This document shows, one piece after another, positions 39,293-45,913 of a DNA stretch of 45,913 nt; within the stretch, counting starts at the first letter, position 1, and each line of letters begins with the position of its first letter. The DNA is taken from the NCBI RefSeq assembly GCF_003334785.1, contig NZ_QOWV01000023.1; one strand, given 5' to 3'. The translations under genes and the position numbers were made by a program. A model generated the notes under the pieces. It ran no database searches, was not told the DNA's origin, and worked only from the letters and a program-made list of their open reading frames with translations. This stretch comes from Escherichia coli. GTDB lineage: Bacteria > Pseudomonadota > Gammaproteobacteria > Enterobacterales > Enterobacteriaceae.

Positions 39293-39441
39293 ATCAGAAT
39301 TCTCTTTAAAAAATTATGGGCCGCTCCAGGCCCATAAATTTTTACGCTCCCTTAACTTGCCCTCATTCCCAAACCTCAATCGCGCGCGTATAGTAGCAGC
39401 GTTTAAAAGCTCTAACTTTTGTTGCATTACCGGGATGTAAA

Positions 39442-41031: not shown

Positions 41032-42297
41032 GTGTCAAAGGCAACCGAACAAAACGACAAGCTCAAGCGGGCGATAATTATTTCAGCAGTGCTGCATGTC
41101 ATCTTATTTGCGGCGCTGATCTGGAGTTCGTTCGATGAGAATATAGAAGCTTCAGCCGGAGGCGGCGGTGGTTCGTCCATCGACGCTGTCATGGTTGATT
41201 CAGGTGCGGTAGTTGAGCAGTACAAACGCATGCAAAGCCAGGAATCAAGCGCGAAGCGTTCTGATGAACAGCGCAAGATGAAGGAACAGCAGGCTGCTGA
41301 AGAACTGCGTGAGAAACAAGCGGCTGAACAGGAACGCCTGAAGCAACTTGAGAAAGAGCGGTTAGCGGCTCAGGAGCAGAAAAAGCAGGCTGAAGAAGCC
41401 GCAAAACAGGCCGAGTTAAAGCAGAAGCAAGCTGAAGAGGCGGCAGCGAAAGCGGCGGCAGATGCTAAAGCGAAGGCCGAAGCAGATGCTAAAGCTGCGG
41501 AAGAAGCAGCGAAGAAAGCGGCTGCAGACGCAAAGAAAAAAGCAGAAGCAGAAGCCGCCAAAGCCGCAGCCGAAGCGCAGAAAAAAGCCGAGGCAGCCGC
41601 TGCGGCACTGAAGAAGAAAGCGGAAGCGGCAGAAGCAGCTGCAGCTGAAGCAAGAAAGAAAGCGGCAACTGAAGCTGCTGAAAAAGCCAAAGCAGAAGCT
41701 GAGAAGAAAGCGGCTGCTGAAAAGGCTGCAGCTGATAAGAAAGCGGCAGCAGAGAAAGCTGCAGCCGACAAAAAAGCAGCAGAAAAAGCGGCTGCTGAAA
41801 AGGCAGCAGCTGATAAGAAAGCAGCGGCAGAAAAAGCCGCCGCAGACAAAAAAGCGGCAGCGGCAAAAGCTGCAGCTGAAAAAGCCGCTGCAGCAAAAGC
41901 GGCCGCAGAGGCAGATGATATTTTCGGTGAGCTAAGCTCTGGTAAGAATGCACCGAAAACGGGGGGAGGGGCGAAAGGGAACAATGCTTCGCCTGCCGGG
42001 AGTGGTAATACTAAAAACAATGGCGCATCAGGGGCCGATATCAATAACTATGCCGGGCAGATTAAATCTGCTATCGAAAGTAAGTTCTATGACGCATCGT
42101 CCTATGCAGGCAAAACCTGTACGCTGCGCATAAAACTGGCACCCGATGGTATGTTACTGGATATCAAACCTGAAGGTGGCGATCCCGCACTTTGTCAGGC
42201 TGCGTTGGCAGCAGCTAAACTTGCGAAGATCCCGAAACCACCAAGCCAGGCAGTATATGAAGTGTTCAAAAACGCGCCATTGGACTTCAAACCGTAA
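41032..42297 (+). CDS. tolA: Tol-Pal system protein TolA, with long Ala/Lys/Glu-rich helical domain II
   Basis: 421-aa ORF with GTG start; N-terminal TM anchor, repetitive (A/K/E)-rich middle, globular C-terminus. Confidence 0.95.
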   Translation: MSKATEQNDKLKRAIIISAVLHVILFAALIWSSFDENIEASAGGGGGSSIDAVMVDSGAVVEQYKRMQSQESSAKRSDEQRKMKEQQAAEELREKQAAEQERLKQLEKERLAAQEQKKQAEEAAKQAELKQKQAEEAAAKAAADAKAKAEADAKAAEEAAKKAAADAKKKAEAEAAKAAAEAQKKAEAAAAALKKKAEAAEAAAAEARKKAATEAAEKAKAEAEKKAAAEKAAADKKAAAEKAAADKKAAEKAAAEKAAADKKAAAEKAAADKKAAAAKAAAEKAAAAKAAAEADDIFGELSSGKNAPKTGGGAKGNNASPAGSGNTKNNGASGADINNYAGQIKSAIESKFYDASSYAGKTCTLRIKLAPDGMLLDIKPEGGDPALCQAALAAAKLAKIPKPPSQAVYEVFKNAPLDFKP

Positions 42298-42429
42298 TCG
42301 CGATGTTGACTGTTCGGACGGTCAACATCAGGCACCGGTTGCCACGGGGTTCTGGTAGTTTTGTGTATTTTAGTTTGTTAACATTCTGCTAAATTATCGT
42401 GGGCCATCGGTCCAGATAAGGGAGATATG

Positions 42430-43722
42430 ATGAAGCAGGCATTACGAGTAGCATTTGGTTTTCTCATACTGTGGGCATCAGTTCTGCATGCTGAAGTCCG
42501 CATTGTGATCGACAGCGGTGTAGATTCCGGTCGTCCTATTGGTGTTGTTCCTTTCCAGTGGGCGGGGCCTGGTGCGGCACCTGAAGATATTGGCGGCATC
42601 GTTGCTGCTGACTTGCGTAACAGCGGTAAATTTAATCCGTTAGATCGCGCTCGTCTGCCACAGCAGCCGGGTAGTGCGCAGGAAGTACAACCAGCTGCAT
42701 GGTCCGCACTGGGCATTGACGCTGTAGTTGTCGGTCAGGTCACTCCGAATCCGGATGGTTCTTACAATGTTGCTTATCAACTTGTTGACACTGGCGGCGC
42801 ACCGGGTACTGTACTTGCTCAGAACTCGTACAAAGTGAACAAGCAGTGGCTGCGTTATGCTGGTCATACCGCCAGTGATGAAGTGTTTGAAAAACTGACC
42901 GGCATTAAAGGTGCGTTCCGTACTCGTATTGCCTACGTTGTTCAGACCAACGGCGGTCAGTTCCCGTATGAACTGCGCGTATCTGACTATGACGGTTACA
43001 ACCAGTTTGTCGTTCACCGTTCACCGCAGCCGCTGATGTCTCCGGCGTGGTCACCAGACGGTTCTAAACTGGCTTATGTGACCTTCGAAAGCGGTCGTTC
43101 CGCGCTGGTTATTCAGACGCTGGCAAATGGCGCTGTACGTCAGGTGGCTTCATTCCCGCGTCACAACGGTGCACCTGCATTCTCGCCAGACGGCAGCAAA
43201 CTGGCATTCGCCTTGTCGAAAACCGGTAGTCTGAACCTGTACGTAATGGATTTGGCTTCTGGTCAGATCCGCCAGGTGACTGATGGTCGCAGTAACAATA
43301 CCGAACCGACCTGGTTCCCGGATAGCCAGAACCTGGCATTTACTTCTGACCAGGCCGGTCGTCCGCAGGTTTATAAAGTGAATATCAACGGCGGTGCGCC
43401 ACAACGTATTACCTGGGAAGGTTCGCAGAACCAGGATGCGGATGTCAGCAGCGACGGTAAATTTATGGTAATGGTCAGCTCCAATGGTGGGCAGCAGCAC
43501 ATTGCCAAACAAGATCTGGCAACGGGAGGCGTACAAGTTCTGTCGTCCACGTTCCTGGATGAAACGCCAAGTCTGGCACCTAACGGCACTATGGTAATCT
43601 ACAGCTCTTCTCAGGGGATGGGATCCGTGCTGAATTTGGTTTCTACAGATGGGCGTTTCAAAGCGCGTCTTCCGGCAACTGATGGACAGGTCAAATTCCC
43701 TGCCTGGTCGCCGTATCTGTGA
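42430..43722 (+). CDS. tolB: Tol-Pal system periplasmic beta-propeller protein TolB
   Basis: 430-aa product from [21 protein letters not shown] (signal peptide); ORF track begins one codon earlier. Confidence 0.97.
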
Positions 43723-44287: not shown

Positions 44288-45079
44288 ATGAGCAGTAACT
44301 TCAGACATCAACTATTGAGTCTGTCGTTACTGGTTGGTATAGCGGCCCCCTGGGCCGCTTTTGCTCAGGCACCAATCAGTAGTGTCGGCTCAGGCTCGGT
44401 CGAAGACCGCGTCACTCAACTTGAGCGTATTTCTAATGCTCACAGCCAGCTTTTAACCCAACTCCAGCAACAACTTTCTGATAATCAATCCGATATTGAT
44501 TCCCTGCGTGGTCAGATTCAGGAAAATCAGTATCAACTGAATCAGGTCGTGGAGCGGCAAAAGCAGATCCTGTTGCAGATCGACAGCCTCAGCAGCGGTG
44601 GTGCAGCGGCGCAATCAACCAGCGGCGATCAAAGCGGTGCGGCGGCATCAACGACGCCGACAGCTGATGCTGGTACTGCGAATGCTGGCGCGCCGGTGAA
44701 AAGCGGTAATGCAAACACGGATTACAATGCAGCTATTGCGCTGGTGCAGGATAAATCCCGCCAGGATGACGCAATGGTGGCATTTCAGAATTTCATCAAA
44801 AATTACCCTGATTCAACTTACCTGCCAAACGCCAATTATTGGCTGGGTCAGTTAAACTACAACAAGGGTAAAAAAGATGATGCGGCGTACTATTTTGCTT
44901 CGGTAGTGAAAAACTATCCGAAGTCACCAAAGGCTGCAGATGCGATGTTTAAAGTCGGCGTCATCATGCAGGACAAAGGTGACACCGCAAAAGCGAAAGC
45001 CGTATACCAGCAGGTTATCAGTAAATACCCTGGTACTGATGGCGCTAAACAGGCACAAAAACGTCTGAACGCGATGTAA
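44288..45079 (+). CDS. cpoB: Cell-division coordinator CpoB (TPR-repeat periplasmic protein)
   Basis: 263-aa ORF with signal peptide, coiled-coil and C-terminal TPR-like repeats; formerly ybgF. Confidence 0.93.
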   Translation: MSSNFRHQLLSLSLLVGIAAPWAAFAQAPISSVGSGSVEDRVTQLERISNAHSQLLTQLQQQLSDNQSDIDSLRGQIQENQYQLNQVVERQKQILLQIDSLSSGGAAAQSTSGDQSGAAASTTPTADAGTANAGAPVKSGNANTDYNAAIALVQDKSRQDDAMVAFQNFIKNYPDSTYLPNANYWLGQLNYNKGKKDDAAYYFASVVKNYPKSPKAADAMFKVGVIMQDKGDTAKAKAVYQQVISKYPGTDGAKQAQKRLNAM

Positions 45080-45087
45080 TGCATAAC

Positions 45088-45121
45088 ACACGACCAGAAG
45101 TCGCATTATTTCTGGTCGTGT
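45088..45121 (+). terminator. Perfect 12-bp stem-loop after cpoB; terminator-like but without a clear U-tract
   Basis: ACACGACCAGAA (45088-45099), loop GTCGCATTAT, TTCTGGTCGTGT (45110-45121). Confidence 0.4.
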
Positions 45122-45243: not shown

Positions 45244-45319
45244 GGGTCGTTAGCTCAGTTGGTAGAGCAGTTGACTTTTAATCAATTGGTCGCAGGTTCG
45301 AATCCTGCACGACCCACCA
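45244..45319 (+). tRNA. lysT: tRNA-Lys (anticodon UUU)
   Basis: 76-nt GGGTCGTTAGCTCAGTTGGTAGAGCAGTTGACTTTTAATCAATTGGTCGCAGGTTCGAATCCTGCACGACCCACCA, CCA encoded. Confidence 0.95.
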
Positions 45320-45454
45320 ATCGCTAAGGTGGAAGCGGTAGTAAAACGTGAAGGATAACGTTGCATGAGCAACGGCCCGAAGGGCGAGACGAAGTCGAGT
45401 CATCCTGCACGACCCACCACTAACATAGTTAGTTGTAGTATCCAGCGTAGTATC

Positions 45455-45530
45455 GGGTGATTAGCTCAGCTGGGAGAGCACCTCCCTTACAAGGAGGGGG
45501 TCGGCGGTTCGATCCCGTCATCACCCACCA
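45455..45530 (+). tRNA. valT: tRNA-Val (anticodon UAC)
   Basis: 76-nt GGGTGATTAGCTCAGCTGGGAGAGCACCTCCCTTACAAGGAGGGGGTCGGCGGTTCGATCCCGTCATCACCCACCA. Confidence 0.95.
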
Positions 45531-45533
45531 CTC

Positions 45534-45609
45534 GGGTCGTTAGCTCAGTTGGTAGAGCAGTTGACTTTTAATCAATTGGTCGCAGGTTCGAATCCTGCAC
45601 GACCCACCA
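45534..45609 (+). tRNA. lysW: tRNA-Lys (anticodon UUU)
   Basis: Identical 76-nt tRNA-Lys sequence, 3 nt after valT. Confidence 0.95.
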
Positions 45610-45758
45610 GTTTTAACATCGAAGACAGATGTTAAGCGTGTAGGATAACGTTGCGTCAGCAACGGCCCGTAGGGCGAGCGAAGCGAGTCATCCTGCACGA
45701 CCCACCACTAATGACGGTGGGTTCGGTGGAAGTAGTTTGTAGTATCCAGCGCAGTATC

Positions 45759-45834
45759 GGGTGATTAGCTCAGCTGGGAGAGCACCTCCCTTACAAGGAG
45801 GGGGTCGGCGGTTCGATCCCGTCATCACCCACCA
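45759..45834 (+). tRNA. valZ: tRNA-Val (anticodon UAC)
   Basis: Identical 76-nt tRNA-Val sequence. Confidence 0.95.
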
Positions 45835-45837
45835 CTC

Positions 45838-45913
45838 GGGTCGTTAGCTCAGTTGGTAGAGCAGTTGACTTTTAATCAATTGGTCGCAGGTTCGAATCCT
45901 GCACGACCCACCA
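45838..45913 (+). tRNA. lysY: tRNA-Lys (anticodon UUU); ends exactly at the window edge
   Basis: Identical 76-nt tRNA-Lys sequence ending in CCA at 45911-45913. Confidence 0.9.

Follow-up and report, generated by a model that had tools for sequence, protein, structure and literature searches.

Protective 3′ stem-loops between cistrons are an established mechanism, known from malE-malF and from E. coli operons generally (PMC5927463). The stem-loop analysed here, just 3′ of tolA in Escherichia coli, resembles these structures: it is likewise a stable hairpin without a U-tract just past a cistron of a polycistronic transcript, with a structure that enterobacteria conserve. However, most of the structures in that work sit inside the downstream open reading frame, whereas the post-tolA hairpin lies in a spacer, and unlike the protective structures it has no steady-state 3′ end mapped to it. 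Rho-dependent 3′ ends that are trimmed back to a stem-loop (Dar and Sorek, 2018; PMC6061677) are alike in that a hairpin without a U-tract could define a processed end, but neither a Rho-termination region nor a 3′ end is listed at the tolA-tolB spacer. Intrinsic terminators, such as those of ybgE, pal and cpoB in the same DNA, likewise place a G+C-containing hairpin soon after a stop codon at the boundary of a transcription unit; they have a U-tract and a mapped 3′ end, while the post-tolA hairpin has neither. Finally, 5′ stabiliser hairpins of the ompA/papA type are, like it, stable hairpins placed in untranslated sequence ahead of an abundant envelope gene. In contrast to these, the post-tolA hairpin lies ~60 nt upstream of a -10-like element (42390-42395) and would hence not be part of a transcript from the tolB promoter. 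A small hairpin at 42400-42414 fits this class better.

All coordinates refer to the window, i.e. the whole stretch of 45,913 nucleotides of E. coli DNA that was analysed, unless stated otherwise. The window covers the cyd/tol-pal region. Secondary literature describes the cluster as transcribed into ybgC-tolQRA, tolB-pal-cpoB, plus one full-length transcript (PMC8953051; PMC6013679). A 301-nt piece across the hairpin is present in all 5426 complete E. coli genomes, between annotated tolA and tolB. The features of this boundary are the following:

41032 to 42297, plus strand: tolA coding sequence (list of open reading frames; tolA and tolB are annotated here in all 5426 complete E. coli genomes).
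42302 to 42313, plus strand: 5′ arm of the hairpin, GAUGUUGACUGU (sequence, folding).
42314 to 42317, plus strand: tetraloop UCGG (folding).
42318 to 42329, plus strand: 3′ arm of the hairpin, ACGGUCAACAUC, followed by AGGCACCGG (sequence, folding, terminator scan).
42330 to 42362, plus strand: variable spacer; the further helix that single-sequence folding of E. coli predicts in it is not conserved.
42363 to 42399, plus strand: U-rich, promoter-like, near-invariant block (invariant columns of the spacer alignment; read as a putative promoter from its sequence).
42400 to 42414, plus strand: small hairpin UGGGC/CAUCG/GUCCA (RNAalifold on the spacer alignment; covaries across genera).
42427 to 43722, plus strand: tolB coding sequence (list of open reading frames; annotation in the 5426 genomes).

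The sequence GATGTTGACTGTTCGGACGGTCAACATC at 42302-42329 holds two arms, GATGTTGAC (42302-42310) and GTCAACATC (42321-42329), which are perfect reverse complements of each other, as the first-pass annotation of this DNA had reported when it described a perfect 9-bp stem after tolA. The 10-nt loop given there does not hold, because folding continues the pairing inward beyond the nine perfect pairs by U-G, G-C and U-A and arrives at a 12-bp stem closed by a 4-nt UCGG loop. The tolA stop codon TAA occupies 42295-42297 and the stem begins at the fifth base after it, with 4 nt between the two, which bears out the closeness to the stop codon that had been remarked upon. Equally correct was the remark that no U-tract follows: the tail 3′ of the stem, AGGCACCGG, has none, and a scan for the terminator consensus yields no match at the hairpin. 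The stem includes 5 G-C pairs, and the free energy of the 28-mer amounts to -15.7 kcal/mol. Within a context of 51 nt it is -21.7 kcal/mol, corresponding to a z-score of -3.6 versus 200 dinucleotide shuffles, 1 of which folds equally well. The post-tolA stem-loop is a genuine RNA hairpin, and the earlier observation was correct but understated.

On the window alone, the case against a chance occurrence is only moderate. Perfect 9-bp inverted repeats with loops of up to 12 nt occur at 8 distinct places, versus 1.7 hits expected from shuffles; the exact hairpin motif is expected 0.02 times and has one match. It is the cross-species comparison presented below, rather than the match in a single sequence, that puts the hairpin beyond chance and that, on the alignments at hand, rules chance out. 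In contrast to REP/BIME elements, the post-tolA hairpin is single-copy: it is found in one place per genome (median 1) across 5426 E. coli genomes. An origin as REP/BIME or other dispersed palindrome is ruled out by this copy number, in the genomes as well as in the window. Scanning of positions 41800-42900 with Rfam covariance models, at E-values up to 10, gave nothing overlapping 42290-42430; the scan returned noise only, inside the tolA repeat region.

For comparison across species we used 80 tolB loci of Enterobacteriaceae and located the tolA stop codon in each. Nearly every genus has a strong hairpin that starts mostly 0-9 nt past this stop, with stem sequences that differ, e.g. UUUUCCCCG/CGGGGAAAA in Enterobacter and Klebsiella, UUUUUCGCG/CGCGAAAAA in Kluyvera and CCCCUGA/UCAGGGG in Citrobacter. 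A perfect-stem hairpin of -8 kcal/mol or lower within 45 nt of the stop is present in 53 of the 80 loci; by the same measure, the controls reach 4.5% (shuffles), 6% (windows of tolB coding sequence) and 0% (the next 45 nt of spacer). The post-tolA hairpins display 32 different inner-arm sequences. Unrelated hairpins occupy the same position in Pantoea, Yersinia and Edwardsiella, and Pectobacterium has a weak one.

Covariation was examined on an alignment of 79 spacers, made with MAFFT from sequence only. RNAalifold on this plain alignment did not recover the tolA-proximal hairpin, since its arms are too divergent to be aligned by sequence; for this reason, a 10-bp helix from one Enterobacter-type sequence was mapped onto the columns instead. 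In the mapped helix, 81.7% of the cells are paired, versus 71.4% in shuffles (0 of 500 as high), and registers slid along the alignment stay at or below 63%. Double changes, on both sides of the helix, occur at 10 of its 10 pairs. A neighbouring candidate helix put through the same test has 66% of its cells paired versus 67.7% in shuffles, and hence the signal of the hairpin is not an artefact of relatedness. This neighbouring helix, at 42330-42361, had been considered, together with the U-rich tract that follows it, as a terminator in its own right, and was rejected for its lack of covariation.

Among the distinct 4-nt loops, 20 of 36 are GNRA tetraloops, of six kinds. This enrichment, in a loop type that marks stable RNA structure, points to selection on RNA rather than on DNA. 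The comparison thus far indicates that the shape of the post-tolA hairpin, not its sequence, is kept across enteric bacteria, and argues for a hairpin that is genuinely maintained by selection. It supports the presence of a functional-looking RNA structure at the boundary between ybgC-tolQRA and tolB-pal-cpoB.

The hairpin is weak in Salmonella arizonae and diarizonae, E. albertii, E. hormaechei and Atlantibacter, and its weakness in several lineages shows that it is not essential. It is absent in Kosakonia oryziphila (locus L074, 1400-1510) and in a related MAG (locus L070). In these two a natural deletion has left a spacer of 57 nt, with the tolA stop directly followed by GTTTGTTAAAATTCTGCTAAATTATCG; the same deletion takes away the hairpin as well as the U-rich stretch that precedes the promoter-like block. 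To judge from these loci, the hairpin is dispensable in some lineages. At four distant loci (TolB 48-53% identical) the spacer between tolB and the gene directly upstream, which is confirmed as tolA in 2 of the 4 and presumed to be tolA in the other two, measures 8-28 nt, or 63 nt in one AT-rich case, and none of these four spacers was found to hold a hairpin. Among the loci sampled, a long spacer with hairpin and promoter block occurs only in Enterobacterales. The hairpin, the variable spacer and the near-invariant block of tolB promoter and leader form an Enterobacterales-specific boundary region of about 130 nt.

The losses bear on the question whether the hairpin has any function of its own. 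It could be a neutral or weakly selected passenger of a fast-evolving, recombining tolA 3′ end, or a by-product of spacer composition; it is lost or weak in several lineages and has no transcript end mapped to it, as such a passenger might be, and two identity groups of the TolA C-terminal domain as well as the pattern in E. albertii (see below) suggest a cassette-like replacement. However, the helix covaries beyond shuffled and slid controls, unlike the adjacent one, which has no covariation; the hairpins are far more stable than shuffles or flanking sequence; the loops are strongly enriched in GNRA tetraloops; and unrelated stems stand at the same position in different families. A hairpin without function therefore appears improbable to us, although we would place it ahead of the other alternatives discussed here.

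Two observations concern the neighbourhood of the hairpin in related genomes. In genomes with a TolB more than 91% identical to that of E. coli, the identity of the TolA C-terminal domain (last 88 codons; window 42034-42297) is bimodal, with values of about 80-94% and about 55-72%. E. albertii has a TolB that is 97% identical, yet departs from E. coli in the TolA C-terminal domain and in the spacer next to it, hairpin included. This suggests a cassette-like replacement of the phage/colicin receptor domain (the TolA C-terminal domain) along with its 3′ tail. Furthermore, in many genera (within loci L019-L080) the 5′ arm of the hairpin reads UUUCCC or UCUCCC, complementary to GGGAGA, the invariant Shine-Dalgarno sequence of tolB that lies ~110 nt further downstream; the 3′ arm in those genera, GGGGAAA, resembles a Shine-Dalgarno sequence. 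The complementarity may be a coincidence, or may reflect a lineage-specific long-range pairing in the read-through transcript. An anti-Shine-Dalgarno role as such was dropped, as the E. coli arm has no complementarity to the tolB Shine-Dalgarno sequence.

Intrinsic termination in E. coli requires a U-tract. Every one of the 56 strong related hairpins has fewer than 5 U among the first 8 nt past the stem, and for this reason a canonical terminator is, on the evidence of these sequences, not the conserved function. Published 3′ ends were consulted by adding 735310 to the window coordinate, which gives the MG1655 coordinate; the hairpin corresponds to MG1655 777612-777639. Between MG1655 774654 and 778985, no 3′ end on the plus strand is listed in the Term-seq tables of Adams et al. 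2021 (three conditions) or in the TRS 2023 tables, lists of E. coli K-12 3′ ends which hold dominant ends only, about 900-1200 per condition, so that a weak end could escape them. The first-pass annotation had named the lack of 3′ ends near 42330 as one half of what would speak against its proposal, and this is what the two thresholded lists display. By contrast, the U-tract terminators of ybgE, pal and cpoB in this window are all listed in both maps:

MG1655 774654 (window 39344), plus strand: 3′ end after the ybgE hairpin at 39314-39337.
MG1655 779674 (window 44364), plus strand: 3′ end at the pal terminator, inside cpoB.
MG1655 780434 (window 45124), plus strand: 3′ end at the cpoB terminator (hairpin 45090-45119).

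The published table of Rho-termination regions lists none between tolA and tolB or in early tolB; the sole one nearby lies inside cpoB. The first-pass annotation had proposed that the hairpin could be a partial terminator. In its most favourable form, such a weak or factor-assisted terminator or pause site would shed some polymerases after tolA and would shield the tolB promoter from interference by read-through. The location of a stable hairpin right after the stop codon, at a reported operon boundary and upstream of a conserved promoter-like block, is what one would look for in this case. However, a U-tract is missing in E. coli as in the 56 strong related hairpins, the two maps that do detect the three U-tract terminators of the window list no 3′ end at the hairpin, and no Rho-termination region is listed between tolA and tolB. 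We therefore consider a partial terminator unlikely, and more so than a hairpin without function.

The first-pass annotation had also named an RNA-processing or stability element as an option, and it is in this direction that our tentative best explanation goes. We hypothesize, with a probability of roughly 0.4, that the hairpin is an intercistronic stem-loop lacking a U-tract, which serves as a barrier to 3′ exonucleases and defines where the ybgC-tolQRA segment ends. RNA polymerase would not be stopped by the hairpin itself. Instead, a read-through transcript from ybgC to cpoB would be cut in the U-rich downstream spacer, or its 3′ end would be formed heterogeneously; 3′-to-5′ exonucleases (PNPase, RNase II) would then digest back and stall at the base of the stable stem. 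In this way the ybgC-tolQRA segment would survive independently of the fate of the downstream part, with the level of tolB-pal-cpoB coming mainly from a promoter of its own. Both the exonuclease block and the downstream cleavage are steps that we infer. What such a barrier calls for, a stable and structure-conserved hairpin directly downstream of tolA, is present at this locus.

Several findings stand against a barrier. A strong one should leave a visible end, and no steady-state 3′ end appears at the hairpin base in the two thresholded maps. The ybgC-tolQRA operon is in the operon set of Dar and Sorek (PMC5927463), but tolA is in none of their other supplementary tables, which include lists of differential decay and of protective structures. 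Moreover, the hairpin is missing from Kosakonia oryziphila and the related MAG, is weak in several lineages, and has a stem mismatch in E. coli KE40. Nevertheless, this ordinary between-gene hairpin more probably caps and protects the mRNA upstream of it than signals RNA polymerase to stop, and it should not be annotated as a terminator. It adds one more structure-conserved, sequence-free intercistronic hairpin, previously unannotated, and will be no surprise to specialists.

The distance between stop codon and stem allows for a different role. The stem follows the stop at 0 nt in Yersinia, after 2-3 nt in Kluyvera, after 4 nt in E. coli and after 2-8 nt in hairpins of the UUUCCCC type. With 0-9 nt between the tolA stop and the stem, part of the stem has to be opened by the ribosome that terminates there. 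The hairpin might accordingly be linked to translation, by tuning termination or recycling at tolA, by blocking re-initiation or the sliding of ribosomes, or by keeping Rho off the spacer; in the last variant, read-through into tolB would be promoted. Stems of unrelated types keep close to the stop codon, and a model of this kind would predict the lack of a mapped 3′ end. On the other hand, the proximity may just reflect the ~60 nt of free space between the stop and the promoter block, the Pantoea hairpin is offset from the tolA stop by 11 nt, and Kosakonia oryziphila has lost the hairpin. A translation-linked element thus seems doubtful, ranking between a hairpin without function and a partial terminator.

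More generally, the hairpin may act in cis without any part in forming a 3′ end. Its reader would be the ribosome terminating on tolA, or an RNA-binding protein that recognises structure, and the hairpin would control the read-through transcript in the spacer (Rho exclusion, tolB translation). A role of this kind would explain why structure and closeness to the stop codon are conserved while the maps contain no 3′ end, and we hold it to be just as doubtful as the translation-linked element. A binding or processing site for an RNA-binding protein in the narrower sense, i.e. a ProQ-type binder of structured 3′ regions or RNase III, would suit the conservation of shape without sequence, as a protein that reads structure would require. 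However, the genera have no sequence motif in common and the GGA in the loop region of E. coli is not kept elsewhere; furthermore, a stem of 12 bp is short for RNase III. Such a site is very unlikely, and the least probable of the readings considered.

Two further candidates were discarded. A CsrA site had been considered for the GGA that falls into the loop region of the 9-bp version of the hairpin, but this GGA is not conserved in other genera. A DNA palindrome serving as transcription-factor site does not fit the half-site spacings of FNR, CRP and LexA, and the sequence of the palindrome differs in every genus.

The cap proposed above leaves the level of the downstream genes to another part of the spacer. 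In the spacer alignment two parts are discernible, the first ~65 nt being variable and containing the hairpin, and the last ~70 nt being nearly invariant across genera; the invariant block is also recognizable in Yersinia, Pectobacterium and Edwardsiella. This block includes TGcTAAATT, an extended -10-like motif at 42387-42395, from which the predicted tolB transcript would start at about 42401-42403; a U-rich tract spans 42356-42380. It is followed by the small hairpin at 42400-42414, in which one pair (alignment columns 128/135) is C-G in 52 sequences, U-A in 17 and U-G in 10, and just after that by the tolB Shine-Dalgarno sequence AAGGGAG at 42418-42424. A promoter scan produced one weak promoter-like site inside tolA (42192-42221), no better than expected from shuffled sequence. 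The near-invariant block (42363-42426) is probably an internal tolB promoter with a 5′-terminal stabilising hairpin.

In Klebsiella pneumoniae, the region upstream of tolB drives lacZ and is repressed by CRP, and the response to glucose is seen in tolB and pal, not in ybgC (PMC6985210). As this upstream region drives lacZ and is regulated independently of ybgC, the level of tolB-pal-cpoB is probably set mainly by its own promoter. The first-pass annotation had suggested that the hairpin sets the ratio of tolQRA to tolB-pal-cpoB transcripts; for this task, the near-invariant promoter-like block within the final 70 nt before tolB is the more plausible element.

The stoichiometry of the Tol-Pal proteins is important for the integrity of the outer membrane and for cell division; TolQRA is present in small amounts, TolB and Pal in large ones. 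Whether the spacer is an insulator, a stabiliser or a mere separator affects the design and interpretation of deletions and insertions in tolA, with regard to polarity on tolB-pal. Constructs that delete the hairpin approach the highly conserved block of tolB promoter and leader.

Variation of the hairpin within the species was surveyed with a 36-nt hairpin sequence as query against the 5426 complete E. coli genomes. An exact match, with loop UCGG, is found in 3142 of the 5426, and a match with one mismatch in 2064 of the 5426 (38%). All 5 genomes sampled from the one-mismatch class, including an O157:H7 strain, have the loop UCCG, which is a UNCG-type tetraloop. In one rarer variant a C-G pair of the stem is changed to U-G. 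Strain KE40, sampled from a class of 210 genomes with two mismatches, carries a C·A mismatch in the stem. As far as can be judged from these sequences, the polymorphism of the hairpin in E. coli is mostly structure-neutral.

Several observations were made at the other terminators of the window. The hairpin in the ybgE-ybgC gap (39314-39337) is a perfect 9-bp hairpin preceded by an A-tract and followed by a T-tract, which gives it the form of a bidirectional terminator. Inside ybgE, another published 3′ end, MG1655 774374/774375 (window 39064), comes after GCGCCCCCTGCGGGCGCTTTCC. A canonical terminator hairpin, GCGGCCCCCTGGGCCGC (44342-44358) with TTTTGC behind it, is contained in the initial 80 nt of the cpoB reading frame (cpoB start 44288). 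The site at 44342-44364 coincides with the published ends MG1655 779674 and 779673, which are annotated as cpoB-internal or as an alternative primary end of pal; since the terminator inside cpoB matches the published pal ends, it is one that belongs to pal. Just downstream of it, at 779749, a Rho-dependent region is listed.

On the minus strand, many terminator-like hits of the scan fall inside tolA at 41547-41908, in the region of Ala/Lys-rich repeats. These are almost certainly repeat artefacts, with GCNGCNGC repeats and T-runs mimicking stems and tails. At the end of the window, a cluster of five tRNAs (Lys-UUU, Val-UAC, Lys, Val, Lys) at 45244-45913 begins about 120 nt past the cpoB terminator.
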